64,000 nucleotides of DNA from an uncultured Planctomycetia bacterium (GCA_964527765.1 CAZGQR010000009.1:4579-68578); one strand, 5' to 3'; positions 2,011 through 64,000 are shown, counted from the stretch's first letter. Made by a program: numbers and translations. The notes: generated by a model from the sequence alone, not told the origin.

Positions 2011-3933
<1,923 letters not shown>

Positions 3934-6626: not shown

Positions 6627-6727
6627 GTGTATCCTTTCGTTAATTGCTGACTTTGTTTGTAAGAGTGCAGTATGTTCCCGTACAGGGAGGATCCACACCG
6701 GGCGGAGGGGCCCTGGTAGGGAACATA

Positions 6728-7947: not shown

Positions 7948-7948
7948 A

Positions 7949-9931: not shown

Positions 9932-10820
9932 CTTTTAAAACTATCTCCAGGCTGAAATCGATCGGCCGCACGAAACCGGTAATAGCTCCGACGGAGATGA
10001 TCTCTATGCCCGTCCCGGCATAATCCCTGATGTTCTCCTCGCTGATGCCGCCCGAGACCTCAAAAAGCGCCTTTTCTTCCATGTTCTTTTTCTTGCGTAG
10101 AGCGACCGCATCGCGGACCATCTGCGGGGACATGTTGTCCAGCATGATGACATCGGGGCTTTCCTCAAGGGCGTATTCGCATTCCTTCAACGTTTCTACT
10201 TCTATTTCTATCCTGACGTTCTTCTGCGCCTTTTCCCTGGCGCGCCTGATGGCTTCTTTTATGATGACCTCGCTGTCAGAGGTCTTCATCTGCATGGCCA
10301 GCGCCCTTAAATGATTATCTTTTATCAGGACCATGTCCCATAATCCCTCTCTGTGGTTGCGGCCGCCGCCGACGGTGACCGCGTACTTCTGAAGGTATCT
10401 GTGAAGGGGGATCGTTTTCCGCGTGTCATATACCTTCGCCTTCATCCCTGCCGTTCTATCGACCATCTCCCGCGTCTTCGTGGCCACCCCGCTCATCATC
10501 CCCAGGAAGTTAAGCGCTGTCCTTTCCCCCTTCAGGATCGCCCGCGCCTCGCCTTCGATGAACGCTATCTCCTGTCCGGGCTCGATAAGATCACCGTCCT
10601 TTACCATGGGACGAAACCTGAGGCTGTATTCTGCGGCGGCAAAGACCCTCTCGATGACCTCCATGCCGCAGGCCACGCCCTTTTCATGCGACATGATACA
10701 GGCATCCGTATCAAGGAACCTGTCAATGACCGCCTGCGACGTGATATCGCCTCCCCGGATATCCTCTTTCAGCGCGGCCCGGACGATCCTATCCACTCTT
10801 TTCTTGTCCAGGTCTTTCAT
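9918..10820 (-). CDS. nadC: nicotinate-nucleotide pyrophosphorylase (quinolinate phosphoribosyltransferase)
   Basis: QPRTase family sequence (ILKGERTALNFLGMMSGVAT, VYDTRKT, LIKDNH). Start moved to ATG 10820 (MKDLDKK), giving a 4-nt overlap with rluB. Confidence 0.85.
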   Translation of the reverse strand: MKDLDKKRVDRIVRAALKEDIRGGDITSQAVIDRFLDTDACIMSHEKGVACGMEVIERVFAAAEYSLRFRPMVKDGDLIEPGQEIAFIEGEARAILKGERTALNFLGMMSGVATKTREMVDRTAGMKAKVYDTRKTIPLHRYLQKYAVTVGGGRNHREGLWDMVLIKDNHLRALAMQMKTSDSEVIIKEAIRRAREKAQKNVRIEIEVETLKECEYALEESPDVIMLDNMSPQMVRDAVALRKKKNMEEKALFEVSGGISEENIRDYAGTGIEIISVGAITGFVRPIDFSLEIVLKDGKI

Positions 10821-49019: not shown

Positions 49020-52000
49020 TTACGCGGCGGATGCTATGAGTTCCTCGATCTTTTTATACACGCCTCTGTCGGGGACCTTGACCGCTCCCGGGATAAGCCT
49101 GATAATAACGGTGGTTCTGTAGCATTCGGCTGTCCTGTCCCAGCACATCTCCCATATGGCGTCCTCGTCAAGGTCCGCGGCATTGTCTATGGTCCTGTAG
49201 CAGCTTATGAACTTCTCTCTCCAGTATTCCACCCACCCTTCATCTCCATGTTCCCCCATCCTTGCAAGGGCCCGGAAAAGAGTGAAAAGGACCACTTCCA
49301 TCAGCGGATAATAATGCTCGCTCGTCAGGCCATTGTCCGTTATCTCCGTTATCGTGGAACTTCCCTCAAATCCCTTGAAATATTTTTCGCGGTTTTCGCT
49401 GCTCGTCACGATCATGACATTTTCCCTGCGCACGCTGCCGTCACCGTTCTGCACTACCGATTCAAGGCCGGCGGCAAGGTTTTTGCCATTGCCGTAGCGG
49501 ATCACGATATTCTTAAGAAAATAAGCGAGCTGGTCGTTACCGCCCGCGCGGTCCTTGAGCGCCCCGATCAGTCTGCCCAGTTGTTCCCTTATCTCTCCCC
49601 CGGCCAGCTCTTCGTCAACGGCAAGCACTATCTTTTCTCTCCTGTGACACGCAGTGATCAGGCCGTTCACCAGTTCCGGGAGGACCGTCTCCATCCTTCT
49701 CATGATCCTTTTCTCGGGTAATATTTCCATATCCTCAGCCGGTTTGACCCGTGAAGCATCACCGTCGGCCGCCAGTCTTGCTTTGAAGAAAGACCTTACC
49801 TTATCAAGTTCGTCCATAACGTCTTTCATGTTATCCGGCGTGCGCCTGTCTGTATCCCCCGCGGTCATGCCCATGACCAGCAGTCCCAGGCCGCTCACCG
49901 TGATATCGTGCCCGGAAACGCCGCTATCCCTTCTTTCATCCTCGATGAACAGGTGCTCTATCGTCCTTCCCAGGCCGTAGATATCGCGCTGCGGGCATGC
50001 ATCCTTGTCGCCGGTCGAGAACCGGTCATGCCCCCCGCCGACACGTTCGCCTTCCGGCCTGGCCAGGCCGAAATCGATCAGCATGACCTGTCCGCCCCTG
50101 TTGAAAAGAATATTATCCGGGGCCACGTCATTATGGGTCCAGCCGGCCTCATGCATGCGGTGCAGTATCTCCGCCACGCGGATAAAGACATCTATCTTTT
50201 CAAGGGGCCCGAGTTCCTGCCAGCGGCCCGCCGCGAGGTCTTCGCCCTCTTCCATCCCTTTAAGCTTCATCCAGAACGCACCGTTCGGGGTCGTGCCGAG
50301 GGTGATCAATCGCGGGATGCCTTCCCGGACCCCCAGCTTGTCCAGCTCCACCAGGGCCTGAGCTTCCTTGATGTTCACTTCGTTGTTATATCTTATTCCC
50401 TGTTCGTCCTCATCCATCCGCGAAACTTTATAAAAAACGTCCGGGTCCGACATGTCCTGAAAAATATCCGAGACATACCCGGACGCCATGTAGTCGTATT
50501 TTTCCTCATCGTGTTCCTCTTCCGAGACACCAAGGATCGAACGATCGACCAGCTGCTTAAGGCGCGGGTCCCGCTCCAGCTGCTTCAAAAGCTCTTCCGC
50601 CGCGTCGCTTGCCGCAGCAAATCCGAATTCAGCATCACCGGCAGCACCGGCATCCTCCGTCCCGAGAAGTTCCCGCCACTCTTCTTCTCCGAACATGGGA
50701 AGTCCCGGCTCCGTTTCCCCGAATAATTCCGTATCATTCAGGTGCTTTTCCATTATGGAAATGCTTTCCTCGATCTCCCGGAAAATATCCAGGATCAACT
50801 CCCTCCTCTTGTCGTCAATATTGGCTTCCCGCGCCAGAAATTCATCGATGGTCCTCGGAATGACCCTCAGGAACTCTATCTCCTTTGAGCTTCCGGAGGT
50901 AATTCCAAGTTCAAATTTCAGCATCTCGCGGATCCCGCCCAGCACCCAGACCATGGCTCCTTTTGTGCCGAGCCCCAGGTCCACGTACACCACCGGGGAG
51001 AGGTGCGCATCCGAGTGCTGAAGGACAAGATTCTGCCCTTTCATGTCCCTGATATAGAATCCCACGGCTTCACCGCTTTCATCCTTTTCCGCGGTAAGAA
51101 GCCACGCGCGGATTATGGTCTCGATCGCCTCCCGGTACGCTTTTTCCTTTTCCGCGGGGTCGTCGATCCTGTCGATGCTTACACCGTCCGCGAACTCGCC
51201 GATAGTGAGCCCGTAAATATCCTGCTTGTCCAGGTCCCTTGAAAGCCGGCGACTGAAGTCGTCCTCGATATAATAGCTTTTCTTGATGAATATCGCCACG
51301 CCGTTAAGCGCGCGGAGCTGCTTGAACCAGTCGATCTCGCGGCCTACCTTTTCCTGGGCGGTCATGATGTCTTCATAGTTCTCTTCATCTATCAGCCTGC
51401 ACCCGAACTTTATCCTGCGTCCGTCGTCGACTTCCGCTTCGACCCTGAACACGTCTTTGTAATCCCCGCTCTCTATATACCTTATGCCCCTGATGATGAA
51501 ATTTCTGCTTGTCGGGGAAACCTGCTGTTTGACGTCTTCCAATATTTCGGATAAGGCCCTTTTTAATGCCGCTTTCAATCTTCTTGTCCCCAGGGGCCAG
51601 ATCGTTTCCCGCAGCCCTCCCCAGAGGAGATCGTCGTCAATGCGCACTTCGGGCCTGAGGGGCAGTCTGGCGGACATCATTTTGGGCTGCGCGGCTTCCT
51701 TCCCGGTCAGAATGGCCCTTACCCTCAGGGCTTCGGCGCGGAATTCCCGCGCCGCGTCCGCGTCGCCGAGCTCGTCCTGCCTGAAAGCCAGTTTCTCCAG
51801 GTAATCCGCGGCGGCGTAGGCCGCTATCATCATGTTATAACTCGCTTTTTTGCTGGAACCCGATATCTTTCGCCATATTTCGCTCTCTTTTCTTGAAGGA
51901 TCGCGCGCCCATGACAATCCCTTCACCTTGGGATCGGCATCCGTCGCGGGAAGAGCGCCCCCGGCGATGTCATGCCTCTTGAGATACCTTCTGATGATCC

Positions 52001-55000
52001 TCGCCGCTCTTTTCTGGTGATAGCTCGCGATGTAAAAGATCATGTTATCAAGCCGCTCGTAGACGCCGTTGGGGCTTGCCGCTTTCGCGGAGAAATCTAT
52101 CTTCTTCTTTATCAGCTCCTGCGTAAGATCGATAAAATGCGCGTGGATCTCCGGGGCCCTGTCCGGCTTGAACGTTATGTAAGCACGCACTTCTTCCGCA
52201 CCCGGGTCCCTGTACTTCCCGGTCGATTTGTTGTAAAACAGCATGAAACCTGACGCGTTACGCGTGTCCCCGTTATAGTGATAATCGGACTCTGCGTTTA
52301 TGTGCCTGAAACGGACTTCGATGCCGAACTTTTCGAGCAAGATCTCCCTGAAACCCTGACGGACGGCGCGCCCCTCTTCCAGTATCTTCATGGCCCTTTC
52401 GCGGGATGGCTCGCTTTTTTCTCTCCGTCGTTCTATAAGAAAATTATACATGTATCGCACTACCCGGCCGGCAAGTGTGGGCCTGTCCCCTTCGACAAAA
52501 AGGTTCCCCATTACCGGGGCGATAAAAACATCCGGTTTCCTGTCCACGACAGGAAAAAGAGGGCTTACCTCTACACCGTCCGGTTCCAGAGCGCCGGTAG
52601 ATTCCCCCCGTTGCCGCGCGAACAGTTTTTCGAACTCCGCCAGTTTTTTCGGATCCTTCGCCAGAGCTTTCCTGATCACGTCCGCCTGGGAGAGAAGCCC
52701 CGTGCGCACGAGATACTCGACCAGTTCCTGCGCCGTGGCTTTTCCGGCGAACCCTTTCAAATGTTCGGCATCCAGCCCTCCGCCCATTGGTGGCGATTTA
52801 TCTTCAGGTGATTCGGCAATGGGCGGACGGGCTGTGATGCCGCTGCGGGCAGGCAATTCGTCCGTTATGAATATCCTTATCTGGGGATCGCGGTAATCGC
52901 AGTTCGAATCAAGTTCCTTTCCGTACAGATACGCGCTATAAGGGATCCCACAGGCCTTCAGATAGCTCGTATAGATCTCGAGGTGTTCCAGTTCACCGGA
53001 GGCGAGCCTGCGCTCCGGGAAGAGCTCGTAGTCATCCTTCTTGTCAAACCTGTATATGTATTTGAGCGGGAAATAAAAATCGGCCCGGACGGTCCTGTCC
53101 CGCGAGCGCTTCTCCGAGTCAATAAGAGTGATTATGGAATCGAAACTGTGGCGGTGGCAGGCGCCCCATGCGCCTCCCGTGATCACGAAAACAATATCGT
53201 CATTTTTAAGAACGGTTTCCACCCATTCCGCTTCAAGATCACCTTTATTTATCTGCGTTTCTCCGATCCCGTATTTTGACGCGAGCCGTTCCGGATCGGG
53301 GGCATATGCATCCGAAGGCCTGGTCACGATGCACCGGTGATCGACCGGGCCGAGCGCATCTTCAACGCCGGCGATCGTTCTGCCGGGGATCTCCGGGTGG
53401 ATCTCAAGGGCTGCTATTTTCGCGTCGGTAACGGCTGTTTCTCTGGCGGAAGAGGCCGTGGCACGTGGAGGCTTTGTGAAAACATAAGCGGTATTGACAT
53501 TTATCAGTCCCGGTATTTCCTCAAACCCGGGTTCATTTTCCACGAAATCCTTTCCGTCGAAGTGGCCCCATTTCAGGCTCCACCCACCTTTCTTTACGAG
53601 TTTTTTGCTAAGCTTACGTATAATAGGCCTGTTCTTCCGGTAGGCTTTCGAACTCGGCGGAAACTCTATAATGATCTGTCCGCCGGGCGCCATCCATTCT
53701 CCGAGCTTCTCATACCAGGCATCGGGAATATCCTTCACGTCAACATAAACGGCGACGTTGCATAATCTCAAAGTCCCGACACTGCCCGGCGCAAGATCCA
53801 GGTCGAGTATGTCCTGCTCCAGCACTTCCATCCCGTCGTCCGTCTCCAGCAGCGCCTCTTTTACCTGATTCAAATACGCGATAACAAAAGGATTCTTGTC
53901 CACGAAAACATACTTGCGGTCCTTGGAAAAATTCAAAAAGTAATAAAAGGGATTAGTGCCCGAAGCCAGGTCATAAAAGGGTTTTTTGTTCGCTTCCGCA
54001 TCCGGATTTTCGTGCCCCGCTATGATCCGGTTCAGCTGACCTATTTCCCGTGCGTATTCTATGTTTATGAGGGCCAAAAGCCGGCCTAACAGCGCTACAA
54101 ATTCCTTCGCCTCCGGATCTGCATGCATAGTGCCCGTAAAAGCGGTAAACCGCCGGAACCCGTCAAACATGTAAGGCTGATCAAGTTCTTCATATTCTTC
54201 CACTAAAAGTTCATAAGCCAGGTTAAGATCTTTCGCAGTGTTTAAAGAAAGAAGTAATTTGCCTGCTATTTTGAAAAAATCAAATCCGGTGCGTTCGATC
54301 ATCTCGACGAACTTCGGGTCCTTCTGCATGTAGATCTCTCTGGCGCGGGCGGCAAACCGCTCCGTGTTTTCCGCCGAACGGGCGGCGGGCAGTCCGGGAA
54401 CGGGCTCAAATTCGATGGAAGTCCGCGTTCCTACGATATTCCTGTGATTTTTACCGTAAATTTCCTGTCTTCCATAATACGCCACGCCGTCCAAGGCCCT
54501 GACGGCCTTTTCACCGGCCCCGTAACCGTACAGCTGGGCATTATGAGCCCCTATCGTTTTCCCCGTATCTACGCCCTCTTTCGACGCCGTATCGTATACG
54601 TCCATGACTTTCGCGCTTCCGTGGGGGGAGAGCTCCAGATAAATGAATATGGGACGTTCGAGATCCATTCTGTTCCCGTGCACAAAAGCGTTCTGTAAAA
54701 CCTCCCGGACCGCGGAACGCATGTCTTCTCTGCCAAATGCCCCGGACATACCCCACGCAAGATCGATCAACAGGCCTTTTAACTCTTCGTATTTATTCTT
54801 TACTTTGGAGAGAGCTTTTAGATCGAGACTGACGATCTTCCCGTTTTTGATCGCGTTTATTATTTCGTCTGTCGAAGAAATATCTATCTTGACGATCTCG
54901 GATGCGCCGGTCGTCTCCCTTATCGCCTGCTTCAGGGGATCCAGCGGCGGTAAAACCCTCTGCCCGTCGGCGGATACCGCGGAGAATAAGACCCCCTGCT

Positions 55001-58000
55001 GAAGGATGGGCCGCGGCTGGGGTTCCGGCAGCGGGAATAATGTCAGCTGTTCATAGGCGGGCGCCTTCTTCTCGACCGACATCCTTACCTTATCGAGCAG
55101 ATCCTTCGCCATATATTCAGATATTGCAACGAAACGGCACTTTTGCCGTTCGTCTTCGGGCAGATCCTCCGTTGAAGGATAATAGATCTCCCGGAATCCG
55201 AGTTTTTCAAAGAAATCCTTCGCCTGTTTTCCCTCTTCGGCATATTCGCTGTCCTCTGCCGGGTGCCCCGCGAATATTCCTTCCGCGCTGCCCTTGGTAT
55301 CAGGATCGTTCAGACCCCTTTCAACGGCCTTCGCGATAAGGACCTTGCCCAGGCCTCTCTCTCTATATTCTTCCGAGATCTCCATGTACTCGCCGATATA
55401 AACATCCCGCGCATAAAGTTCCTGCGCCCCTTCTTCAGGGAACATGAACGGGCCCTTGTAATAATACGCCATGCCCAGGAGTTCGCCTTTCTCCGACTGC
55501 AGCTTTGCCAGGAATCCGGGGGAATGCATCTTCCCGTCCATGGCGCCTTCCCAATTACGTCTTTCAAAATAACGTTCCTTCCCCGGGGCGAACCATGCAT
55601 CCAGGGTCTCTTTTATTTTGACCGGATCGGATACCTCCTCCACGTAATACCTGGTATCACCGGTCCGGAAAGGCCCTCCTATAAGTTCTTTCCGTTCTGC
55701 GGCGGGGTGCCGCGTCAGCCCTCCGACATCCTGCCGCGCAAGCAGTTCCTCGAACTCCGCCAGTTTTTGCGGACGCCTCTTTAATGCTTCCCTGATTATA
55801 TCCACCTGATAAAAAAGACCCGTACTCGTAAGATATTTGATCAAGCCTTCCGGCGTCGCTATCCCGGCGAATTCTCCCAACTGTTTAGCATCCAGCCCCC
55901 CGCCGATAGGCGCTGCGGCCTTTGGCTCTTTTGTTTTATCTGTTCCCGGATGTCCGGCAGGATCATGCCCGGCCCATTCCAGTTCCCAAAGCTCTGCCTG
56001 CTTTTCATCCGCTAAATCGATGCTGACGGGTTTCCATCCTTTGCCCTTGAACGGGAATTCGTAATTTTCCCACAGATTTACTTCCGGTATCGTGATCTTT
56101 TGCCTTTTATACCGCCGTCTTATCCTTTCCTTTCCGGAAGCGTAGAACGATCCGATCCCTGCCTTTTTTGCGGCACTGATTATTTCTTTTATGGCATTTT
56201 CCGCCCATGCCCTGTATACATCCCTTACATGGCTCGGCTTTAGTTTCCTATATCCCCTTGAGGGGTGCACTTCATTAAATAAAATCGCCGGCTTTCCGCC
56301 TATGAGCTTAACTTCAGCTTCTATCTGGCCGAATGAACCCTCCGGGCCTATGAACGCCTGCGCGACCGGCATATCCAACACATCCAGTTCAGGATGGCTA
56401 TCCCTATAAGAGACCTCCGGCTCAACGACAAAAACCTTAAATATATCATCATACTCGACCGTTGCCGTCACCCGGTGCCCTTTATGATCCCAGGTGATTT
56501 CCTTCTTACCGGCAAAAGACCCTATAAATTCTTTTTTCAGTTTTTCCATGCCGGCCCGGGGGAGTTCCCGGGGCTTTTCCGCGGGCTGTTCTCCGGACGG
56601 AGTTTTCAAAAAGTGACTGATAAGAAGGCTGCCTATCACAATACCCGCCAGCCCCAGAATACCCCAGATACTTAACGCGCCGATGCCCGCAAGAGCGAAT
56701 GCGGGCAGCATCCGGGTTTGATCCTCCGCGGCGCGGACCGTGAAAACGATATCGCCGAAAGGATTATCTCCCGACCGGTTGGAGTTGATAGACGGCCGCC
56801 ACAGCGATTCTTCATCGGAAAACTTCCCGTAACGGAGGCGCCCTTTAGCGTCCTTGTACCTGTAGCCCGTGACGCGGGCTTCAGCCGTAACCAGATACCT
56901 GCCGGGCCTCTTCGGCTCAAATACGCCCCCGAAAACATAATCGTGATGATGAAGACCCCCCACCGCCTTGTAATCCATGGGTATATACTCGGTCCCGACA
57001 AATTTTCCGTTTTCATCGAACGTGTTGATCTTCAGGCGGGCTTCCAGGCATTTTTCCGCGAAATTGCGATTTTTCTCAAAATCATCCCGGGTTTTTTCCG
57101 GAACGGGATAGAACTCCTCGACCTCGCCAAGGTATACCCTCAAAGTGATCTCGCTGCGCGAATTTGTTTCGCAGTCTATCCTGGCGCCGGAGACGGGGTC
57201 AAGCCCTCCCAGCCATGAAATGCGCGGATAAACGAACGCCTTGTCGAGCCTCTGCGATACGACCAGCTGCCGCAGGATCCCGGATACGTGTTCCAGCGTG
57301 ACGGTGTCCCCCTCAAAATCCATTTCCTCCCTGAGGATGGTCATTATCGTCTCAAGCGAATGAAGATCGTCCTTGGCCCTTTTATTGGCCTCGTAATAAG
57401 GCTCTTTTTGGTCCTCCGGCACATTAAGCTCACTGATCATGCCGTCAAGCACTTCTATATCTTTTGCCAGAGCATTTTTTATGCCGTTCATCTCTTTTAA
57501 AAAGCTGCGGACGTCTTCCACGGTCAGTCGCGCCATATTGCCTTCCATCTTGGAAATGCTGTATCTCGCCTCGGCAATATGACCCGCGGAGTTCTGTCCG
57601 AATTCAGTGTGGGATTCCCGGGATATGTCATCCTTGTGTTGCCTGACCAGGTGCTTTATATTGGACCGTATCAACCCTTCCACCGAAACCACGCTGTTGC
57701 GGAAAAGATGGCTTGTATCGGAAATGATCTGTTCCGGCACTGTCCTTTTGTGCGCTTCCATAAAGAGCATGACCTGTTCCGGATATGTTTTACCGTCTTT
57801 CTCGTCCACGCTTCTCGTATGCGCGTATTTTATGAAATGTTTATACTCCGAGGGATATGCCCTTTCAAGATAATTGACCGCGTCCCTGAACGGAAACTGC
57901 AGCGTGAGCATAAAAAGGAACAGGAAATCTTTTTCCTTCTTCTGATCGGCGGCCAGTATCCCGCCGATGGTCCTGCGGAAGATATGATCGAACCTGGCGG

Positions 58001-61000
58001 GGGTGAACGGGACCATGTCGTATTTCTCCTTGTTGACCGACAAAAGCTTCATGAGATGTTCCCTTACCAGTCTCATGCTCCGGGTCTCGTCCGGTACGGT
58101 TTTCGCCCACTCATTGAACTCATAAATAACAAGATTATCGCGGCACTGGGCCCACTGTTTTCCTATTTCACCGGCGATATCCTCCAGGGCCTCTTCTATG
58201 TCCGCGTAAACCTTCCTGTCGAACCTGTTCAGGCTTACCCGTTCTTTGTTCCCGCTGTCGTACAGCCTGACGGGATTGCCGATGACCTTTTCGCTGTAAT
58301 AATCCGCGGCAAGCTCTTCGACGAACTCCTCTTCCGTTCCATATCCGCCGTGCTGGTCCTGGTAGAGCCTCATAAAACGCGCGAATTTCTCCTGGCCCAG
58401 CCTGCCCCTGAGCCGCCCCAGGAGGGCTTTTACATGATCGTCCGTTATGAGCTCGTGCACTTTTTCGTGAAAATACCCGTAAGTCTGTATTTCGGACCGG
58501 GAGATATTTCTGCCCAGCGTCTCGGAAAGCGATTGCCTGTAGATCTCCATGACCTGTCTCGGCTGCTCCAGGACCCGGGGCGTTTCGCCCTTGATGATGC
58601 GGAAGATACCGAAACGGATGATCTCCCGGGCCTCTTCTTCCCTGCATAACCCCGCATCGACAAGCTTTTTCGTAAAAACCCCCCACAGGTTTCCTTTGCC
58701 TTTTTTGACCATGCGGGGAGGCCGCGAGGAACGTTCTTCGCCCTTGTCTTTCTTTCCGGAGCGCGTCATTACGTCGCATGACATTTCCTTCGGCGTATCA
58801 TCCCAGTGCCTGTAGATCCACTCGCGCAGGATCCAGATCGCTTCTTTGGCCTCTCTGACGGCTTCGGCGTTAACCCCGATCTTTAGCGGGCCCAGCAGAT
58901 TTCCGTATATATCGCTGAGGTCGGCTTCTCCGGAGCTGAACGATTTCATGTTCCTCAGATCCTTGTAACGCCGGCTGCCTTCCTGAAAATATTTCAGGAA
59001 TCTTTCCGCGAGCTCAGCCGCCGAAAGCGAGGAAATTTCTCTCACGAACGGCTCTTCCCAGCGTTCCTTGAATTCTCCCGGCCATTTGCGCGGGTAATAC
59101 GCGAGCTTGACCAGGTCCACAAAGCTTTCAAGGTCAAAGCGGCTTATCCTGTTCCGACGGACGTTCTCTGTATAGTTTTTCCACATCTGGTGCCAGTAAA
59201 TCTCAAGCCGCGATATATCAGTAAGGTTCTCTGTTTCGGATGGAATAGCCGCAGCCTTCAGAAGCTCGCGTTCCTGTTCTTCGTTCAGGCCGAAATCGAG
59301 GGAGAGGGCCCTTAAAAGCTCCGCATATTCCCATTTGTTCAGGGACTCCAGGCTCTCCGATCCCGAATCGCCGAGAGATCGCAGCGTCTTATAAAGATTC
59401 CCGTATTTGACGCTCATTTTTTCAAAGGAACCCGCCAGGGACGGTATCGAATCCACCTCGAGGGCGCGGATAAGGACCTGAAAGGCTTCGAACAGGGGAT
59501 TGGGTATCTTCCTGGAACGTTTCCGGGGGTCGGGCATTTGCATGCTCACGAAAGCGGCGTGGTAGAAAAGCGTCCACAAAAGACGCGGGGAACCCCTTCC
59601 GATATTGTTTTTGCGCGCGAACTGCAGGTACAGGTTGAAATTTTCCACGAAAAGCCGGTCCATGCATTCCGCCGGTTCCCCTTTCAGGCGGGCATCTATA
59701 TACTGGTCCCTCAGGATCTCCATGAACGAATTCAAGAGTTCCGTGAGCCTGAGGCGTTCTCTTGCCGCCTTGATATATTTTCTCGGAAGATTTTTATCCC
59801 ATTCTCCGCCTTTCTGCCATTTCTCGAGTTCTTGCCGTGCTCCCTGCAAAAGGTTGTTCATGCGGTAAAATTCCGGCTCTTTGAGGCTCCTGTCCCGGGT
59901 CATGCCCTGTATCCATCCCAGGGCGGTATCGTTCTTGCCCCTCTCGAGAAACTCCAGTATCCTGTCCGCTTTCCATATGTTAAAACTGTTGCGGTGATGT
60001 ATCCTGTATCTGAGCTCGCTTAATCTCCCGGTCAGTATACGGTCGATCTGGCTCTCAAGCGCTTCCTGCCTGACTTCCAGGAGACTGGCTATGACGCGCA
60101 ATATCTCCAGCGCGCTTCCGTACTCCTCGATCTCCAGAAGCTCCCTGACAAACCCCGACGCCTTGAAAGCGATCGCCTTTTCCCTGACCTTGGCCCTTTT
60201 GAGCGAACTCTCAAGGCCGCCTAAAAGTTCCACGATCTGTTCTTTTCTCTCGATCTCTTCGGCACCGGCGGCACGTTTCCAGCCTTTCCGGCGGCCGACC
60301 GCCTCTTTTGTCTCCTCCAGGGCCTTGATGGATCCCCTGGCCGCGGAGACCGTCCTGCGCACCCAGTCCATCTCCTCGAGGATACTGTCGGTCTCCCTGT
60401 CGCACGTGCGTATCGCCTGCCATGTCAGCTTAGAGGCGTGCTCCGTAACTTCCCTTACATAAGCCTCCCTTTCGCCGGATATCGCATGTTTCGCGTATTT
60501 GCCTTTAAGCACCTTGTACATCCCCGCGCTGGCGTCAAACCACGTTCTCGGCCGCATCCTTCTTTTTCTGGCGCGTGATGCCAGGGCAAGCTCCTCGGCA
60601 AGAAGGCGCGAAGCGGCGCAAAGCGAAGCGCACGCGGCGGACTCATTTTTAATATCTACAAGTTCAATGGCGCGCCCGATCTTTTCCCTGATCTCTTCGC
60701 GGTAATTACGCCCGCCCGTGATAGATAACGGATATGAAGGATCTTCAAGTCGGAACAATTCGCCGTGCATCTCTTCTCTCAGCTTTTCCAGGCGCCCCAG
60801 GCAAACTCGAAGTTTTTCTTCCCTTTCTTCTTCCGGGGCCCCGAAGATCCACCTTATGGACAGCCCGGCGCGCTCGGACGAAAGACGGATAAGTTCAAGG
60901 TTTATCTCGGGGATCCGGCGCAGGTAATAGAACAGGACATCTTTCTCCGCTTCTATATCCAGCAGTATCCTGGCGCGTTCCAGCTGGTCATAATCCGGAC

Positions 61001-63971
61001 CGGCGGACAGCCTTTCAAGTATGACCCTTGCCCCCCCGTACATCCCGGGCGGCCCCCTGCGATACCTTTCGGCCAGTTCATATATGAACGGTTTTTTCTC
61101 TTTGTCGACATGCAGTATGCCGAGGCTGGCCATGCCTTCCAGCTCAGACGATATGGTGCTGTATGAAAAGCTCTTTTCACCGCTCTTCTTCCTCCTGTCC
61201 TGGAATTCCTTTCTGGTAAAAGGACTGTTCCTTAAGGAGCCTTCCCTTAACAGGGTATCAAACCCTTCCAGTATGGAACCGCGCGGCCGGAGCCCTCTCC
61301 TGCCCTTGAACATCTCTCCGATCTGCGGCAAAGGAGGCGCCCGGGGAATGGGCACAGGCTCGGCCTCCGCTTCTTCCTTTCGGGACCTTCGCCTCATGAT
61401 CAATATCGCGGAAAGCAGCAGGACCAGCGGCACCAGGTTCCCTATATCGAAATCCGTGTTTTCCGTCGTGAAGGCGCAGCAGCATCCGCGTTTTTCTTTT
61501 TTCTCCTTGTCAAAAAGGTACCACTGGTAGGGCGACCAGCCCGCGGAGATCGTCACTGACTCCGAATAATCGCTGTCCTTCTGGCCGTCCGGCATTTCCG
61601 TGCGAATGCTCAGATCATAATCACCCGAATGCATGTGATCGGGCAGATCGACCGCATACGAGGATGTCCCTGCCCCGGGAACAAAAAATGTATCCGTGCC
61701 TATCCGTATCGTGTAACCGGTGACCGATCCCTGCAGGGCGCCGGTGTACGGCACCCAGTCCACGGTGAACGTCCTGCCGCCGGCGGCGATCACGTCTATG
61801 ATCTCGGGCGCGAACGGTTTGACTTCCGCCGACATGTTCCAGTGCTGTATGGTATCCGCCTGGGGATCGGTTATCGTGAATCCCGTATCGTCCTGCCAGA
61901 AAAGCGCTCCTTCCGCACCGGCATTGTACACCGAATCCATTTTTACGGAAATATTCGTCGGCTCGAGCTCGGTAAAAGAGAACGGCCCGTCCAGCCCGCT
62001 GGGAGGCTGAAGAGCCCCCATGTAATCATAATAATGGATCCCGTACTTATCCAGGCCGAGAGCGTTCCAGTTCAGCACCGTGTCCTTGTTCTGGGCCCCG
62101 ACCGTGACCACCGAACCCGGGTCCTGAATATGGATCATGTCGGCAAGATCCGCCACGAAAGACTGTACCTCCGGGAGGGTGGCGGTCGCCGCCCACACGA
62201 TCTCTATCGGTTCGTTTATGATGTCCCACTCGACGATCTCGCGCCGGAGCGAATACTGATTTACGAACTGCGCCATCAGATTTATCAAGGCGGCCTTTTT
62301 CACGGGATCGGTTATGAGTTCAGGGTATTCGCCCACGGGATTCGGCCCTTCCATGTCCACGCCGTCGGCCAGCGTGTAGTCGAACAGGGTGGGAATGAGT
62401 TTTATGCCCAGGGCGTTCGCGGCGTCCATGAGCGCGTCCATATCCTCATACACGTGGGCGGAAAAGGATATGGGGGCGCCGCCGCCGTCAAAGACGACAC
62501 CGGACCTTAAGTCACAGAAAAGAAATACCCGCAGATAGCCGCCCTTCCACCGGTTAAGTTCCTGGTAAAGCGCGCTCTTTTTCGTCGCTATGCCTTCGTA
62601 CGGCTCGCCGTTCACGCCGTCTCCTATATCATATCCGTATTTTTCCCAATAATTCGCGCCGCGGGCGAACGTCCAGCCCGGCGTCCACTCCTCGATGATC
62701 TCCTGGACCGGATCGACCTTTTCCACGCTGCCGTCGGGGTAATACGTTATAAACTCGGTAAGGTTCCAGGAGCCGTCATACGCGAAAGTCCAGATCGTCC
62801 CGTCCGTGTCATGCCTGCTGTTTATGTATTCATCGATCCCGTCCAGACAAAAGGAAGCCACCGTGCCGTCATCATACGTCCTGGTAAGGTAATTCGCGTC
62901 TATTGCCTCTTCTGATGCCATGGTAGAGGTGATCGGTGTATATTTTCCCGTACCGGCCGTGGCCGCGATCGGCGCCAAAAGCAGGAAGAAACAAAGCGTT
63001 AAAATGACGAATATCCTTGCCATCCAGCTGACCATCCCGAACACAAAGGGCAGCAGGAATGAATAAAACGTTCTGCCGTTTTCGGGAAGCAGGATTTCGG
63101 CTTTTTTTATCGCCTCATCCAGCGGCACCGGATGAACGACCCCCCTTCGTTTGATCTGTTTCCTCATTTCTTTAAGCAGCTTCAATATGTCCTCCGCTGC
63201 TTCTTTTTGCCCGACACTGCGGTTGAACTGGCCGGCATGCTCCCTGGCAAGGTCCATGCCCTCCGCTCCGGACGGATCCAGCACCAGCAGTTCGCTCAGG
63301 TTCTGCATCGCCCGCGGGAGCATGATCTTCGGATATTTGTCTTTAAGGGTGGAAATGATGACCGCCAGGATAAATCTTCCCATGACCGACCGCGCTTTAC
63401 CGTCAAACTTCCCGGGCAACCCTTGTTTTATGAATCCCTGCAAGCCGACGTAAAAATCGGCTGTTCTTTCTTCCTCCCAGGAATAGGTCAGCGACTTGGG
63501 AAACACATGGGCCGGGATCCTCCACACCGATAATTCCCTGAATATCCTGCTGTAGACATCCTGCTGGCCCTTATCGTCAAGATCGTCAAGCGCGAAATCT
63601 TTCCTGCTTGCGATGGTTTCTGCAAGCAGGGGCTGGATCTTTTTAAACGTGTCTTCGTCAAGAAACCCGCGGAATTTCATGATCTTCAGCCAGCCTTTGA
63701 CATCCGCTTCATTGTGTATGATAATTGTCCGCGGATATAAGCGGCGTTCGGTGAGGGCGCAGAACGCGTCGGCCACCGAAAAAAGATTCACTCTTATGCC
63801 AAGTTGCCGGTTAACTTTTTTGAGGGTCTCTCTTAATCTGGGTTCATGATTCACGGCTATGGTCAGGATGGCTTCCGGCGGCAGCCGAATACCGCTTTTC
63901 TTAAGGACCGCAAGCGAATCCCCGGTATGGTCATGGATCCTTTTCTTCTCGTTATCCGTCATCTGCGCCAA
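49020..63971 (-). CDS. giant multidomain membrane-anchored protein, 4983 aa: TM-flanked extracytoplasmic GH-A-like domain plus ~4100-aa cytoplasmic region with GNAT-, GHKL-ATPase-, SAM-MTase- and two kinase-like domains
   Basis: Single uninterrupted 14.9-kb reading frame. Codon usage and GC are continuous with neighbours. The domain motifs are detailed in the sub-features. No in-frame stop between 63971 and the window end, so the 5' end may lie outside the window. Codon 1 as reported appears to be TTG. An ATG (M4, ~63960-63962) has AGGA 11 nt upstream. Confidence 0.85.
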   Translation of the reverse strand: MAQMTDNEKKRIHDHTGDSLAVLKKSGIRLPPEAILTIAVNHEPRLRETLKKVNRQLGIRVNLFSVADAFCALTERRLYPRTIIIHNEADVKGWLKIMKFRGFLDEDTFKKIQPLLAETIASRKDFALDDLDDKGQQDVYSRIFRELSVWRIPAHVFPKSLTYSWEEERTADFYVGLQGFIKQGLPGKFDGKARSVMGRFILAVIISTLKDKYPKIMLPRAMQNLSELLVLDPSGAEGMDLAREHAGQFNRSVGQKEAAEDILKLLKEMRKQIKRRGVVHPVPLDEAIKKAEILLPENGRTFYSFLLPFVFGMVSWMARIFVILTLCFFLLLAPIAATAGTGKYTPITSTMASEEAIDANYLTRTYDDGTVASFCLDGIDEYINSRHDTDGTIWTFAYDGSWNLTEFITYYPDGSVEKVDPVQEIIEEWTPGWTFARGANYWEKYGYDIGDGVNGEPYEGIATKKSALYQELNRWKGGYLRVFLFCDLRSGVVFDGGGAPISFSAHVYEDMDALMDAANALGIKLIPTLFDYTLADGVDMEGPNPVGEYPELITDPVKKAALINLMAQFVNQYSLRREIVEWDIINEPIEIVWAATATLPEVQSFVADLADMIHIQDPGSVVTVGAQNKDTVLNWNALGLDKYGIHYYDYMGALQPPSGLDGPFSFTELEPTNISVKMDSVYNAGAEGALFWQDDTGFTITDPQADTIQHWNMSAEVKPFAPEIIDVIAAGGRTFTVDWVPYTGALQGSVTGYTIRIGTDTFFVPGAGTSSYAVDLPDHMHSGDYDLSIRTEMPDGQKDSDYSESVTISAGWSPYQWYLFDKEKKEKRGCCCAFTTENTDFDIGNLVPLVLLLSAILIMRRRSRKEEAEAEPVPIPRAPPLPQIGEMFKGRRGLRPRGSILEGFDTLLREGSLRNSPFTRKEFQDRRKKSGEKSFSYSTISSELEGMASLGILHVDKEKKPFIYELAERYRRGPPGMYGGARVILERLSAGPDYDQLERARILLDIEAEKDVLFYYLRRIPEINLELIRLSSERAGLSIRWIFGAPEEEREEKLRVCLGRLEKLREEMHGELFRLEDPSYPLSITGGRNYREEIREKIGRAIELVDIKNESAACASLCAASRLLAEELALASRARKRRMRPRTWFDASAGMYKVLKGKYAKHAISGEREAYVREVTEHASKLTWQAIRTCDRETDSILEEMDWVRRTVSAARGSIKALEETKEAVGRRKGWKRAAGAEEIERKEQIVELLGGLESSLKRAKVREKAIAFKASGFVRELLEIEEYGSALEILRVIASLLEVRQEALESQIDRILTGRLSELRYRIHHRNSFNIWKADRILEFLERGKNDTALGWIQGMTRDRSLKEPEFYRMNNLLQGARQELEKWQKGGEWDKNLPRKYIKAARERLRLTELLNSFMEILRDQYIDARLKGEPAECMDRLFVENFNLYLQFARKNNIGRGSPRLLWTLFYHAAFVSMQMPDPRKRSRKIPNPLFEAFQVLIRALEVDSIPSLAGSFEKMSVKYGNLYKTLRSLGDSGSESLESLNKWEYAELLRALSLDFGLNEEQERELLKAAAIPSETENLTDISRLEIYWHQMWKNYTENVRRNRISRFDLESFVDLVKLAYYPRKWPGEFKERWEEPFVREISSLSAAELAERFLKYFQEGSRRYKDLRNMKSFSSGEADLSDIYGNLLGPLKIGVNAEAVREAKEAIWILREWIYRHWDDTPKEMSCDVMTRSGKKDKGEERSSRPPRMVKKGKGNLWGVFTKKLVDAGLCREEEAREIIRFGIFRIIKGETPRVLEQPRQVMEIYRQSLSETLGRNISRSEIQTYGYFHEKVHELITDDHVKALLGRLRGRLGQEKFARFMRLYQDQHGGYGTEEEFVEELAADYYSEKVIGNPVRLYDSGNKERVSLNRFDRKVYADIEEALEDIAGEIGKQWAQCRDNLVIYEFNEWAKTVPDETRSMRLVREHLMKLLSVNKEKYDMVPFTPARFDHIFRRTIGGILAADQKKEKDFLFLFMLTLQFPFRDAVNYLERAYPSEYKHFIKYAHTRSVDEKDGKTYPEQVMLFMEAHKRTVPEQIISDTSHLFRNSVVSVEGLIRSNIKHLVRQHKDDISRESHTEFGQNSAGHIAEARYSISKMEGNMARLTVEDVRSFLKEMNGIKNALAKDIEVLDGMISELNVPEDQKEPYYEANKRAKDDLHSLETIMTILREEMDFEGDTVTLEHVSGILRQLVVSQRLDKAFVYPRISWLGGLDPVSGARIDCETNSRSEITLRVYLGEVEEFYPVPEKTRDDFEKNRNFAEKCLEARLKINTFDENGKFVGTEYIPMDYKAVGGLHHHDYVFGGVFEPKRPGRYLVTAEARVTGYRYKDAKGRLRYGKFSDEESLWRPSINSNRSGDNPFGDIVFTVRAAEDQTRMLPAFALAGIGALSIWGILGLAGIVIGSLLISHFLKTPSGEQPAEKPRELPRAGMEKLKKEFIGSFAGKKEITWDHKGHRVTATVEYDDIFKVFVVEPEVSYRDSHPELDVLDMPVAQAFIGPEGSFGQIEAEVKLIGGKPAILFNEVHPSRGYRKLKPSHVRDVYRAWAENAIKEIISAAKKAGIGSFYASGKERIRRRYKRQKITIPEVNLWENYEFPFKGKGWKPVSIDLADEKQAELWELEWAGHDPAGHPGTDKTKEPKAAAPIGGGLDAKQLGEFAGIATPEGLIKYLTSTGLFYQVDIIREALKRRPQKLAEFEELLARQDVGGLTRHPAAERKELIGGPFRTGDTRYYVEEVSDPVKIKETLDAWFAPGKERYFERRNWEGAMDGKMHSPGFLAKLQSEKGELLGMAYYYKGPFMFPEEGAQELYARDVYIGEYMEISEEYRERGLGKVLIAKAVERGLNDPDTKGSAEGIFAGHPAEDSEYAEEGKQAKDFFEKLGFREIYYPSTEDLPEDERQKCRFVAISEYMAKDLLDKVRMSVEKKAPAYEQLTLFPLPEPQPRPILQQGVLFSAVSADGQRVLPPLDPLKQAIRETTGASEIVKIDISSTDEIINAIKNGKIVSLDLKALSKVKNKYEELKGLLIDLAWGMSGAFGREDMRSAVREVLQNAFVHGNRMDLERPIFIYLELSPHGSAKVMDVYDTASKEGVDTGKTIGAHNAQLYGYGAGEKAVRALDGVAYYGRQEIYGKNHRNIVGTRTSIEFEPVPGLPAARSAENTERFAARAREIYMQKDPKFVEMIERTGFDFFKIAGKLLLSLNTAKDLNLAYELLVEEYEELDQPYMFDGFRRFTAFTGTMHADPEAKEFVALLGRLLALINIEYAREIGQLNRIIAGHENPDAEANKKPFYDLASGTNPFYYFLNFSKDRKYVFVDKNPFVIAYLNQVKEALLETDDGMEVLEQDILDLDLAPGSVGTLRLCNVAVYVDVKDIPDAWYEKLGEWMAPGGQIIIEFPPSSKAYRKNRPIIRKLSKKLVKKGGWSLKWGHFDGKDFVENEPGFEEIPGLINVNTAYVFTKPPRATASSARETAVTDAKIAALEIHPEIPGRTIAGVEDALGPVDHRCIVTRPSDAYAPDPERLASKYGIGETQINKGDLEAEWVETVLKNDDIVFVITGGAWGACHRHSFDSIITLIDSEKRSRDRTVRADFYFPLKYIYRFDKKDDYELFPERRLASGELEHLEIYTSYLKACGIPYSAYLYGKELDSNCDYRDPQIRIFITDELPARSGITARPPIAESPEDKSPPMGGGLDAEHLKGFAGKATAQELVEYLVRTGLLSQADVIRKALAKDPKKLAEFEKLFARQRGESTGALEPDGVEVSPLFPVVDRKPDVFIAPVMGNLFVEGDRPTLAGRVVRYMYNFLIERRREKSEPSRERAMKILEEGRAVRQGFREILLEKFGIEVRFRHINAESDYHYNGDTRNASGFMLFYNKSTGKYRDPGAEEVRAYITFKPDRAPEIHAHFIDLTQELIKKKIDFSAKAASPNGVYERLDNMIFYIASYHQKRAARIIRRYLKRHDIAGGALPATDADPKVKGLSWARDPSRKESEIWRKISGSSKKASYNMMIAAYAAADYLEKLAFRQDELGDADAAREFRAEALRVRAILTGKEAAQPKMMSARLPLRPEVRIDDDLLWGGLRETIWPLGTRRLKAALKRALSEILEDVKQQVSPTSRNFIIRGIRYIESGDYKDVFRVEAEVDDGRRIKFGCRLIDEENYEDIMTAQEKVGREIDWFKQLRALNGVAIFIKKSYYIEDDFSRRLSRDLDKQDIYGLTIGEFADGVSIDRIDDPAEKEKAYREAIETIIRAWLLTAEKDESGEAVGFYIRDMKGQNLVLQHSDAHLSPVVYVDLGLGTKGAMVWVLGGIREMLKFELGITSGSSKEIEFLRVIPRTIDEFLAREANIDDKRRELILDIFREIEESISIMEKHLNDTELFGETEPGLPMFGEEEWRELLGTEDAGAAGDAEFGFAAASDAAEELLKQLERDPRLKQLVDRSILGVSEEEHDEEKYDYMASGYVSDIFQDMSDPDVFYKVSRMDEDEQGIRYNNEVNIKEAQALVELDKLGVREGIPRLITLGTTPNGAFWMKLKGMEEGEDLAAGRWQELGPLEKIDVFIRVAEILHRMHEAGWTHNDVAPDNILFNRGGQVMLIDFGLARPEGERVGGGHDRFSTGDKDACPQRDIYGLGRTIEHLFIEDERRDSGVSGHDITVSGLGLLVMGMTAGDTDRRTPDNMKDVMDELDKVRSFFKARLAADGDASRVKPAEDMEILPEKRIMRRMETVLPELVNGLITACHRREKIVLAVDEELAGGEIREQLGRLIGALKDRAGGNDQLAYFLKNIVIRYGNGKNLAAGLESVVQNGDGSVRRENVMIVTSSENREKYFKGFEGSSTITEITDNGLTSEHYYPLMEVVLFTLFRALARMGEHGDEGWVEYWREKFISCYRTIDNAADLDEDAIWEMCWDRTAECYRTTVIIRLIPGAVKVPDRGVYKKIEELIASAA
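49751..50471 (-). other. giant ORF: Hanks-type (eukaryotic-like) Ser/Thr protein kinase-like domain 2 (aa ~4500-4740)
   Basis: FWMKLKG (beta3 Lys), catalytic loop WTHNDVAPDNILF (nt ~50106-50135), DFG as MLIDFGLARPEG (nt 50068-50076), subdomain IX-like DIYGLGRTIEHLF. Confidence 0.6.
50771..51371 (-). other. giant ORF: degenerate protein-kinase-like domain 1 (aa ~4200-4400)
   Basis: Catalytic-loop-like FYIRDMKGQNLVL (nt ~51030-51050, RD-K-x-x-N retained, His lost) and DFG-position VVYVDLGLG. Confidence 0.4.
52620..52795 (-). repeat. giant ORF: internal module copy B (aa ~3725-3783), PMGGGLDAEHLKGFAGKATAQELVEYLVRTGLLSQADVIRKALAKDPKKLAEFEKLFARQ
   Basis: Paralogous to copy A. Shared nucleotide strings include ggctggatgc, ttcgccgg and aaaaactggcggagttcga. 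Confidence 0.7.
53561..53951 (-). other. giant ORF: class I SAM-dependent methyltransferase-like domain (aa ~3340-3470)
   Basis: Motif I-like ILDLDLAPGSVGTL (nt ~53780-53820) and post-I/motif II-like WMAPGGQIIIEFPP (nt ~53664-53699) at typical spacing. Confidence 0.45.
54401..54821 (-). other. giant ORF: GHKL/HATPase_c-like domain resembling RsbW/SpoIIAB-type serine-kinase anti-sigma factors (aa ~3050-3190)
   Basis: N-box AVREVLQNAFVHGN (nt ~54672-54710), downstream Gly-rich boxes DTGKTIG and GYGAGEKAVRAL. Confidence 0.5.
55211..55631 (-). other. giant ORF: GNAT-like N-acetyltransferase domain (aa ~2780-2920)
   Basis: Motif A-like RERGLGKVLIAKAVERG (nt ~55325-55375), with beta-strand pattern GELLGMAYYY...VYIGEYMEISEEY upstream and DFFEKLGFREI downstream. 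Confidence 0.5.
55745..55915 (-). repeat. giant ORF: internal module copy A (aa ~2685-2742), PIGGGLDAKQLGEFAGIATPEGLIKYLTSTGLFYQVDIIREALKRRPQKLAEFEELLARQ
   Basis: ~50% aa identity, and visible DNA-level similarity, to copy B at 52620-52795. Confidence 0.7.
56610..56715 (-). other. giant ORF: third 35-aa hydrophobic segment (aa ~2419-2454), possible re-entrant/hairpin membrane anchor
   Basis: MLPAFALAGIGALSIWGILGLAGIVIGSLLISHFL. Gly-rich centre. Topological consequence uncertain. Confidence 0.4.
61393..61436 (-). other. giant ORF: predicted transmembrane segment 2 (aa ~846-859) followed by RRRSRK
   Basis: NLVPLVLLLSAILIM then RRRSRKEEAEAE (positive-inside), returning the chain to the cytoplasm. 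Confidence 0.6.
61437..62960 (-). other. giant ORF: predicted extracytoplasmic domain (aa ~338-845) with clan GH-A (GH5-like) glycoside-hydrolase signatures and a C-terminal FN3/Ig-like module
   Basis: EWDIINEPIE (NEP acid/base motif, nt ~62209-62217). ~80 aa downstream FTELEP (candidate nucleophile Glu). Aromatic-rich beta/alpha pattern. Then a beta-rich segment (TFTVDWVPYTGALQGSVTGYTIRIG...YDLSIR) and CCC just before TM2. Confidence 0.5.
62961..63068 (-). other. giant ORF: predicted transmembrane segment 1 (aa ~302-337)
   Basis: FYSFLLPFVFGMVSWMARIFVILTLCFFLLLAPIAATAG. The long hydrophobic stretch is preceded by a charged cytoplasmic-looking region. Confidence 0.6.
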
Positions 63972-63974
63972 ATT

Positions 63975-63999
63975 CCTGGCGCTATAGTGAAGCGCCAGG
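63975..63999 (-). other. perfect 9-bp stem / 7-nt loop hairpin (cctggcgct-atagtga-agcgccagg) immediately 5' of the giant-ORF reported start
   Basis: Seen directly. Could be a terminator of an upstream gene, a 5'-UTR structure, or coding if the ORF continues upstream. Confidence 0.4.
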
Positions 64000-64000
64000 T

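Follow-up and report, generated by a model that had tools for sequence, protein, structure and literature searches.

The 64,000-nucleotide stretch of DNA analysed here (the window; GCA_964527765.1, CAZGQR010000009.1:4579-68578, listed under an uncultured Planctomycetia bacterium) holds the larger part of a giant gene on its minus strand, whose product combines membrane segments with several enzyme-like domains. A stop-free frame runs uninterrupted through minus-strand positions 49020..63971, and a sequence-only reading of the window had taken it for a giant single gene of 4,983 amino acids. The uninterrupted frame and the single gene stand, but the length and the start are window artefacts: no in-frame stop lies between 63971 and the end of the window, so the frame is open up to the edge and the TTG at 63971 is not the true start. 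An exact look-up of the 4,980-amino-acid window product gave no match. Through the neighbouring RecA, a RecA-bearing JGI contig was found in which the gene adjoining cinA encodes 6,184 amino acids, and a protein of that length obtained by a word-indexed protein search (P0001) is 100% identical across the entire window part. The full gene is thus 18,555 nt (18.6 kb) long. The window contains its 3' 80%, that is codons 1202-6184 (the distal 4,983 codons) and the stop, while the first 1,201 codons lie beyond base 64000; residue numbers below are those of P0001, window residue n being residue n+1201. The true start is an ATG 3.6 kb past the window with a GGAAGGA ribosome-binding site, and a promoter-like site TTGACA-17-TATAGT (near-consensus, extended -10) ends 55 nt upstream of it.

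The gene is real and single, with 6,184 codons rather than 4,983. At least 15 contigs of independent assembly encode exactly this product; they come from JGI, NCBI, ENA, GEM and Logan (two SRA runs shown). Such identity across several samples and assemblers answers the worry about misassembly or frameshifts. When codon usage was taken from 30 of the window's housekeeping genes, the annotated frame scored above the other five frames in 47 of 47 sliding 900-nt windows (minimum log-likelihood margin 36.9), and the claim that the frame follows the codon style of its host was borne out. The G+C content at third codon positions (GC3) is 0.63-0.66 in the giant gene and 0.68 in the housekeeping genes. 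The sole internal DNA repeat is a 179-nt pair, which at 72% identity is too diverged for assembly collapse. It is hardly conceivable that separate genes were joined by a sequencing or assembly error or that the frame is a pseudogene remnant, since the coding signal is uniform in one frame without near-identical repeats, colinear single open reading frame (ORF) homologues of 3.5-6.4 kaa (thousand amino acids) are known, and two conserved domains, domain X and the C-terminal domain (CTD), lie in frame at both sides of the insertion described below. What speaks for such an artefact is that the syntenic region of a related genome reads as two overlapping ORFs in different frames. In that metagenome-assembled genome (MAG; L003, 42-10654, upstream of cinA) the ORFs occupy 42..4430 and 4370..10654 with a 60-nt overlap, which could reflect a genuine split, a programmed frameshift or an error of assembly.

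The gene and the parts of its chassis, the architecture common to relatives of 3.5-6.4 kaa, lie in the window as follows.

49020..64000, minus strand: 3' 80% of the giant gene (open frame, RecA contig, identity to P0001, codon usage)
63723..63971, minus strand: C-terminal half of HD domain 2 (residues 1146-1284; HD/HD_5; Pfam HD E 1.3e-13)
62946..63062, minus strand: hydrophobic segment of 39 residues with one central Arg (1505-1543; hydropathy)
62655..62921, minus strand: beta-hairpin (YD/RHS-like) subdomain at the start of the loop (AlphaFold2 (AF2) strands 12-98 of the loop model; weak RHS_repeat match, E 0.04-0.08)
61830..62612, minus strand: GH5-like TIM barrel (clan GH-A), closest to endo-beta-1,4-mannanases (profile, AF2, Foldseek, motifs)
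61590..61808, minus strand: FN3-like beta-sandwich that follows the barrel (AF2 strands 384-453; Pfam fn3 below its cut-off, E 0.005)
61389..61457, minus strand: single-span transmembrane helix of 23 residues (2040-2062; hydropathy)
60954..61286, minus strand: third copy of a module of ~115 residues with a winged-helix-like core (self-comparison, profile)
56715..60953, minus strand: conserved unannotated stretch of ~1,400 residues (2208-3620), 42-46% identical to relatives
56601..56711, minus strand: Gly-rich hydrophobic segment of 37 residues (3622-3658; hydropathy)
55977..56582, minus strand: domain X, conserved and unannotated (3665-3866; map of homologues)
49023..49682, minus strand: conserved CTD of ~215 residues (5965-6184), ending in Ala (homologue profiles, fold comparison)

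The chassis opens with an N-terminal hydrophobic segment and N-terminal domain (NTD), HD domains, winged-helix-like modules and a hydrophobic segment; an extracytoplasmic loop of beta-hairpins, GH5-like barrel and FN3-like sandwich and the single-span helix form its middle, and the ~1,400 conserved residues, a second long hydrophobic segment, domain X and the CTD its last part. Beyond the window lie the codons for the first hydrophobic segment with the NTD, for HD domain 1, for copies 1 and 2 of the winged-helix-like module and for the N-terminal half of HD domain 2. Two HD domains are predicted from HD-type His-Asp motifs at 230-235 and 1179-1185. The Pfam HD match of the second reaches 51.6 bits (cut-off 22), best over 1155-1273, and its nearest structure is, weakly, the HD-GYP phosphodiesterase 4MCW (E 1e-3). 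The module of ~115 residues occurs three times (456-575, 982-1098 and 2091-2207), and its profile matched AspA, AdcR, Sso10a and BlaI best in the PDB, again weakly (E 0.008-0.7). Residues 2208-3620 gave no match in Pfam or among PDB sequences, and a Pfam search with domain X, the CTD and the tile 4500-5100 gave none.

The loop (1541-2041) is the best-conserved part of the protein, 54-58% identical to relatives, and it agrees with the glycosidase-like module that had been read there earlier. A profile of eight loop sequences matched GH5 endo-beta-1,4-mannanases in the PDB at E 3e-16, with the NEP and G-E motifs aligned. The AF2 model of the loop consists of beta-hairpins, a TIM barrel ((beta/alpha)8) and an FN3-like sandwich, and the top Foldseek matches were the same GH5 mannanases (E 2.5e-14, TM-score to target 0.60). 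The candidate acid/base is Glu1788 (WDIINEP) and the candidate nucleophile Glu1869 (FTELEP); both are invariant in the eight sequences, and in the alignment with 3VUP and 2C0H their counterparts are the NEP and GE(F) motifs. The loop thus has in common with the GH5 mannanases (3VUP, 2C0H, 5Y6T, 4OOU) the TIM barrel, the NEP acid/base and the G/T-E nucleophile motif in a residue-for-residue alignment, although it is only about 20% identical to them, and unlike in these enzymes the barrel is a loop between membrane segments with a beta-hairpin subdomain and an FN3-like domain. A single-sequence search of PDB sequences with the loop had no match, and a word-indexed protein search with it gave two stand-alone barrel homologues, P0012 and P0013 (400-465 residues, 33-36% identity). 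One of them, P0012, carries a lipoprotein-type signal (LISGC), which indicates that this GH5 lineage is extracytoplasmic. As both are without Pfam annotation, they may belong to an unclassified GH5-related family. One of the two has an N-terminal beta-rich domain beside a lipoprotein-type signal.

Hydropathy analysis of P0001 found four hydrophobic segments (10-34, 1505-1543, 2040-2062 and 3622-3658), together 124 of the 6,184 residues (2.0%); the two membrane segments that had been described as flanking the glycosidase-like module are both among them. The segment 1505-1543 may be either a single long span or a helical hairpin ahead of the outside loop. The helix at 2040-2062 is followed by RRRSRK, which by the positive-inside rule places its C-terminal side in the cytoplasm. 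Just outside this helix (window 61458-61490, residues ~2029-2039) there is a Cys-Cys-Cys cluster, GCCCAF, where relatives have G-S-C-S. The long hydrophobic segments are 37-39 residues here and mostly 31-47 in relatives, which is the length of a hairpin. Because the enzymes downstream of 3622-3658 need ATP and acetyl-CoA, this segment must keep the chain on the same side and is read as a hairpin or a re-entrant anchor. The N-terminal segment resembles a cleavable Sec signal, with a basic n-region, a 13-residue core and AWA|YP. The cytoplasm-type cargo of relatives with a single anchor, together with the occurrence of the same module at both sides of the loop, argues that the first ~1,470 residues are inside; an exported N-terminal region would make the 39-residue segment a hairpin. 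The paradox of cytoplasm-type domains behind signal-like N-termini has been reported for larger Omnitrophota proteins (10.1101/2023.11.21.568195; 10.64898/2026.06.07.730766).

Between domain X and the CTD lies a stretch of enzyme-like domains.

49728..55976, minus strand: cargo insertion of ~2,080 residues (3867-5949; BLAST map against homologues)
55731..55910, minus strand: copy 1 of a 60-residue module, opening block 1, with a Pro/Ala/Lys linker before it (self-comparison)
55188..55580, minus strand: GNAT acetyltransferase, block 1 (Pfam Acetyltransf_1, 23.3 bits, cut-off 20.7)
54375..54740, minus strand: putative RsbW/SpoIIAB-type (HATPase_c_2) GHKL ATPase carrying the N-box EVLQNAFVHGN, block 1 (homology, motif)
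53445..54017, minus strand: methyltransferase-like stretch, block 1, motifs only (YDLASGTNP, FVDKNP, APGGQIIIEF; sequence reading)
52611..52790, minus strand: copy 2 of the 60-residue module, opening block 2 (self-comparison)
51891..52259, minus strand: HopA1/LanY-like domain, candidate phospho-Ser/Thr lyase (Pfam PF17914, 26.4 bits, cut-off 22.7)
50775..51587, minus strand: possible kinase-like domain K1, motifs only (IRDMKGQN, VDLGLG; sequence reading)
49935..50372, minus strand: Ser/Thr protein kinase K2, core of a domain that spans ~5705-5934, showing an HND..N catalytic loop and DFG (profiles, motifs)

Residues 3867-5949 are without counterpart in any giant homologue, including the syntenic one (P0004, encoded at L002), and in P0002-P0005 the CTD starts within about 15 residues of the end of domain X. 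The cargo is therefore an insertion specific to this lineage. Domain X directly precedes the CTD also in P0014 and P0022. Recent horizontal acquisition of the cargo was considered and ruled out on composition, its GC3 being 0.63 against 0.66 in the chassis. The cargo falls into two sub-blocks with a copy of the 60-residue module at the start of each. The two copies, 3,120 nt apart, are 60% identical in protein (E 2e-19) and 72% in DNA, so that the duplicated 58-residue module of the sequence-only reading is real, at a length of 60.

That reading had also placed an acetyltransferase, a GHKL ATPase and a SAM (S-adenosylmethionine) methyltransferase in what is now block 1, and two kinase-like domains near the C-terminus. 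The acetyltransferase scores above the Pfam cut-off, has the acetyl-CoA motif R-x-x-G-x-G as RERGLG (4071-4076) and has relatives in P0106 and P0117 (E 1e-18). The GHKL ATPase can be kept as a candidate on homology: although below the Pfam cut-off, its segment has homologous counterparts in P0009 and P0010, both annotated with PF13581, and its best match is to P0149 (E 9e-13). The methyltransferase could not be upheld beyond its motifs, of which YDLASGTNP resembles motif I (D/E-x-G-x-G) of class I SAM methyltransferases. A single-sequence search of PDB sequences with residues 3655-5100 had no match. The two kinases fared differently, K2 being supported by profiles and motifs and K1 having no profile match. 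As in Hanks-type Ser/Thr protein kinases, K2 has the catalytic loop (WTHNDVAPDN) and DFG (IDFGLA). In Pfam, the Kdo and APH kinase models are above their cut-offs and Pkinase reaches 28.4 bits (cut-off 31.7), PDB kinases match at up to E 8e-5, the PADLOC model MkoA aligns over about 230 residues, and the best NCBIfam matches are the kinase domains of LanKC and LanL.

In block 2 the PF17914 match covers profile positions 6-122 of 170. Lys5164, Arg5174 and Tyr5181 have the same spacing (10 and 7) as K219, R229 and Y236 of CaoY; the equivalent of CaoY R187 is uncertain (R5130 at -34). The PF17914 proteins LanY and CaoY are phospho-Ser/Thr lyases which together with a kinase dehydrate Ser/Thr, and PF17914 and kinases co-occur as dehydratase pairs (PMC9486802). 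The giant protein has the PF17914 lyase-like domain, the spacing of the Lys-Arg-Tyr triad and the adjoining kinase domains in common with the class V lanthipeptide dehydratase pair LanK/LanY (CaoK/CaoY) and with the kinase-lyase enzymes LanKC/LanL. Unlike in LanK/LanY, the domains are fused, in the order lyase then kinase and inside a membrane protein of 6 kaa; the equivalent of the APH-type LanK is K1, a candidate from motifs alone; and no precursor peptide, cyclase or gene cluster for a ribosomally made, post-translationally modified peptide (RiPP) is near the giant gene. Since precursor peptide and RiPP genes are missing from the neighbourhood, the target of this lyase-kinase fusion would more likely be a protein. 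The HopA1-K1 block was also compared with metagenomes, in which no relative of it turned up.

The two ends of the protein are found in many others. An exhaustive profile search with the CTD gave 305 cluster representatives, 162 of them at E <= 1e-10, in host proteins of 85 to 6,377 residues. The CTD has a flavodoxin-like alpha/beta core without specific known relative and ends at most 20 residues from the C-terminus in 145 of 155 cases. Ala is the final residue in 84 of the 88 complete copies (in the giant gene the last four codons are at window 49023-49034), and the residue before it is polar or basic. Such a conserved free terminal Ala suggests recognition by a partner, for example a protease or a PDZ-like domain. 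The NTD of P0001, consisting of the hydrophobic segment, a WA-x-P motif and about 140 further residues, is common to 91 of 120 apparently full-length CTD members after local iteration. The conserved NTD and CTD thus bookend at least 300 protein clusters with varied enzymes. The cargo between them is very diverse and of cytoplasmic type (TPR, kinases, HATPase_c, HD, HTH, HEAT, iPGM, beta-CASP, sigma-70 region 2), and members with the N-terminal hydrophobic segment alone carry HATPase_c and CofD, GH130, enolase or HD. The small members P0036, P0021 and P0020 embed a complete enolase, a GH130 mannooligosaccharide phosphorylase, or HATPase_c and CofD.

All relatives with names are Candidatus Omnitrophota. 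Two Omnitrophota MAG contigs (L002 and L003) have a large protein with the same CTD followed by cinA-thpR-recA-alaS-hisD-hisB-hisH, and compared to the window their RecA is 81-84% and their HisD 82% identical; the syntenic locus of one Omnitrophota MAG gives the RecA value of 84%. On these comparisons, the gene is from an uncultivated Candidatus Omnitrophota bacterium, and the conserved gene order in two MAGs indicates a vertically inherited core-genome gene which is not on an island. Every gene of the window that was examined is a housekeeping gene of the minus strand. Leaving the giant gene, the assigned ones come in the order cinA, thpR/ligT, recA and alaS, then the his and trp operons; further along follow ruvX, genes for peptidases of families M16 and M50, rpe, a gene of the phosphoglucomutase family, lepA and lepB, and the last assigned genes are pgsA, der, plsY, gpsA and hom. 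Upstream of the giant gene, beyond the window, are a divergent GAF-GGDEF gene and then smc, a MerR-family gene, genes for electron transfer flavoprotein (ETF) and acyl-CoA dehydrogenase, and a ketoacyl synthase gene.

Several further observations concern this neighbourhood. All ~46 plausible genes of the window (1-64000) are on the minus strand, an unusually long co-oriented stretch of housekeeping genes, and the GC skew is negative in every 2-kb bin (-0.07 to -0.18). The divergent gene just upstream and outside of the window (L009, 8533-9783) is of the GAF-GGDEF diguanylate-cyclase type, and together with the HD-GYP-like HD domain and with P0007, which has PAS, kinase and GGDEF domains, it hints at a link to cyclic di-GMP. 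In the 217-nt gap between the giant gene and cinA there is, immediately before cinA, a near-consensus promoter-like site TTCACA-17-TATAAT (48810-48838, minus strand). No terminator-like hairpin was found in this gap, and cinA-thpR may have their own promoter. The sole RNA gene detected in the window is tRNA-Pro(GGG) at 20786-20864 on the minus strand, and the Rfam and tRNA scans gave nothing relevant to the giant gene. In its longest frame (GTG at 46567) alaS has 133 nt in common with recA (46435-46567); as the public gene call starts alaS later (909 instead of 952 residues), the overlap is probably an over-extended ORF.

Taken together, the giant protein is likely a membrane-stapled enzyme platform of the class of very long Omnitrophota proteins, with a predicted enzymatic GH5 loop outside and protein-modifying cargo inside. 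The GH5 loop, with both catalytic Glu intact, would face the periplasm or envelope and cleave or grip a polymer of the beta-1,4-mannan or glucan type. From the end of the single-span helix onwards the chain, cargo and CTD included, would lie on the cytoplasmic side as a long conserved scaffold that carries the enzymes and is attached to the membrane through hairpin staples. The insertion between domain X and the CTD gave this lineage its two enzyme blocks. The cargo enzymes would act on proteins, so that the kinase or kinases phosphorylate Ser/Thr and the GNAT domain acetylates, and the LanY-like lyase would then eliminate the phosphate to give dehydro-amino acids, an irreversible mark. Block 1 would in addition hold a GHKL module of the Ser-kinase type.

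Some of our results weigh against this picture. The topology is based on hydropathy and the positive-inside rule only, and if 3622-3658 is a single span, all of the cargo would be outside. A functional Sec signal would export the first ~1,470 residues, including the HD and winged-helix-like modules, and the signal-like N-terminus conflicts with the reading of the NTD as cytoplasmic in relatives with a single anchor. The confidence of the GH5 model is moderate (predicted local distance difference test, pLDDT, 65) and the Pfam GH5 model had no match to the loop at E <= 1. Among the cargo domains, GHKL reaches 15 bits in Pfam, below the cut-off of 27.4; the methyltransferase-like stretch has no match in Pfam (E <= 1), PDB sequences or a family methyltransferase profile; and K1 has none in Pfam, NCBIfam or PDB, the family kinase profile giving 0.8 bits.

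An alternative is an exported effector polyprotein with a true Sec signal, displayed or released and acting on or in a host or prey cell which supplies ATP, SAM and acetyl-CoA, in the manner of MARTX toxins or of the type III effectors HopA1, YopO and XopAU. We regard this as possible but rather improbable. The signal-peptide-like N-terminus with its conserved A-x-A|Y/S-P site is in its favour, and so are the weak kinase matches to YopO and XopAU, the naming of the lyase-like family after the type III effector HopA1, and the terminal Ala of the CTDs, which could be a recognition signal. Both preprints on Omnitrophota giants likewise favour extracellular effector roles for many of them, with cytoplasm-type domains predicted outside. 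However, RRRSRK after the single-span helix places the following 4,100 residues inside, and no secretion genes are found within 10 kb upstream or about 49 kb downstream of this syntenic core-genome gene. Pfam and NCBIfam searches found no RTX repeats, autoprocessing protease, C39/S8 peptidase or SecA_DEAD, and the alpha/beta flavodoxin-like fold of the CTD is unlike known secretion-sorting domains. The likeness to MARTX and polymorphic toxins is an analogy only: conserved ends flank variable enzyme modules in both, in the toxins a set that differs from strain to strain, but RTX/GD-rich repeats, a cysteine protease domain and type I secretion genes were not found here, the giant protein has internal membrane segments, and most of it is probably cytoplasmic.

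The sequence-only reading had proposed a sensor-transducer, in which the GH5 loop, on binding or cleaving a glycan, would allosterically switch the kinases, the acetyltransferase and the putative methyltransferase. In favour of such coupling are the position of the loop between membrane segments, the long helical region and the domains of signalling type behind it, the divergent GAF-GGDEF gene, the HD-GYP-like HD domain 2 and the domains of P0007. On the whole we find it unlikely, as the loop and the first cargo enzyme are more than 1,600 residues apart, the invariant catalytic Glu pair fits an enzyme better than a pure sensor, and no HAMP, DHp or receiver elements were detected with Pfam and NCBIfam. 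In addition, P0004 from the syntenic locus keeps the loop without the cargo, which indicates that the two are not a co-evolving unit and argues against an obligatory functional unit. An anti-phage defence or mobile-element passenger gene, as might be suspected from the kinase, GHKL and methyltransferase-like content, is very unlikely. PADLOC and NCBIfam kinase models (PD-T4-6, MkoA, mad6, Stk2) do match K2, but only its generic kinase core, and no other defence component was found. The defence-system reading was dropped for this reason, and the syntenic housekeeping locus, the host-like GC3 and a scan of viral contigs with the CTD, which found no relative, also speak against it.

The preferred reading, a membrane-stapled enzyme platform, places the protein close to proteins that are already known, and the earlier statement that it is not any described architecture was overstated. 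Multi-enzyme membrane proteins of giant or very great length have been described as a hallmark of Omnitrophota (10.1101/2023.11.21.568195), and long proteins with methyltransferase, HATPase, GNAT and HD have been catalogued by Nielsen & Lui 2026 as a recurrent module, 'Module 1' (10.64898/2026.06.07.730766). The same study gives ~2% membrane residues in the long proteins of Omnitrophota and considers an inner-membrane-anchored reading with cytoplasmic domains as one hypothesis. Like this class, the giant protein is from Omnitrophota, has HD, HATPase and GNAT on one polypeptide (the methyltransferase by motifs only) and combines a signal-like N-terminus with 2.0% of residues in hydrophobic segments. 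Its membrane content and domain content make it a fresh example of a described class, below the length thresholds of the surveys: it has 6,184 residues and the catalogue threshold is 10,000, which is operational and not biological.

The 'Archaeovorin' and dockerin-type giants of Omnitrophota, implicated in carbohydrate or cell-wall processing by West-Roberts et al. 2023 (10.1101/2023.11.21.568195), are similar in mixing glycoside hydrolase, methylase, GNAT and HATPase domains and have many membrane segments. In contrast, they exceed 30,000 residues, contain SecA_DEAD and often a C39/S8 peptidase or dockerin/TSP3, and are near type II secretion genes. The giant protein has no SecA_DEAD or SecA preprotein-binding domain (Pfam and NCBIfam, at E <= 0.1 for residues 1205-6184 and at E <= 1 for residues 1-1540), C39/S8 peptidase or dockerin/TSP3 and no secretion genes nearby, and judged by its domains it is not an 'Archaeovorin'.

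The NTD and CTD terminal domains are not mentioned in either of the two Omnitrophota preprints, and the Module 1 paper is without the GH5-loop chassis, the HopA1/LanY-kinase fusion and the recA-linked locus. The bookends, the recA-linked GH5-loop chassis and the fused LanY-like lyase and kinase thus appear to be undescribed there. Tentatively, the bookends could define an undescribed Omnitrophota-wide platform for membrane tethering, assembly or delivery which carries arbitrary enzymes in proteins of 0.7-6.4 kaa, the giant protein being an expanded member whose fused kinase and lyase dehydrate proteins and not RiPP peptides.

The published Omnitrophota giants (10,000 to 147,000 residues) are too large to handle. 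A relative of 6 kaa with a defined chassis, recognisable catalytic residues (GH5, GNAT, kinase, LanY-like lyase) and domains small enough for expression tests is therefore of use, and the giant gene is at the same time a clean case of cargo insertion at a syntenic core-genome locus. In case the bookends are a general enzyme carrier, they would provide a handle for finding and classifying the class below the current length thresholds and would help to resolve why cytoplasm-type enzymes are found behind signal-like N-termini in Omnitrophota.

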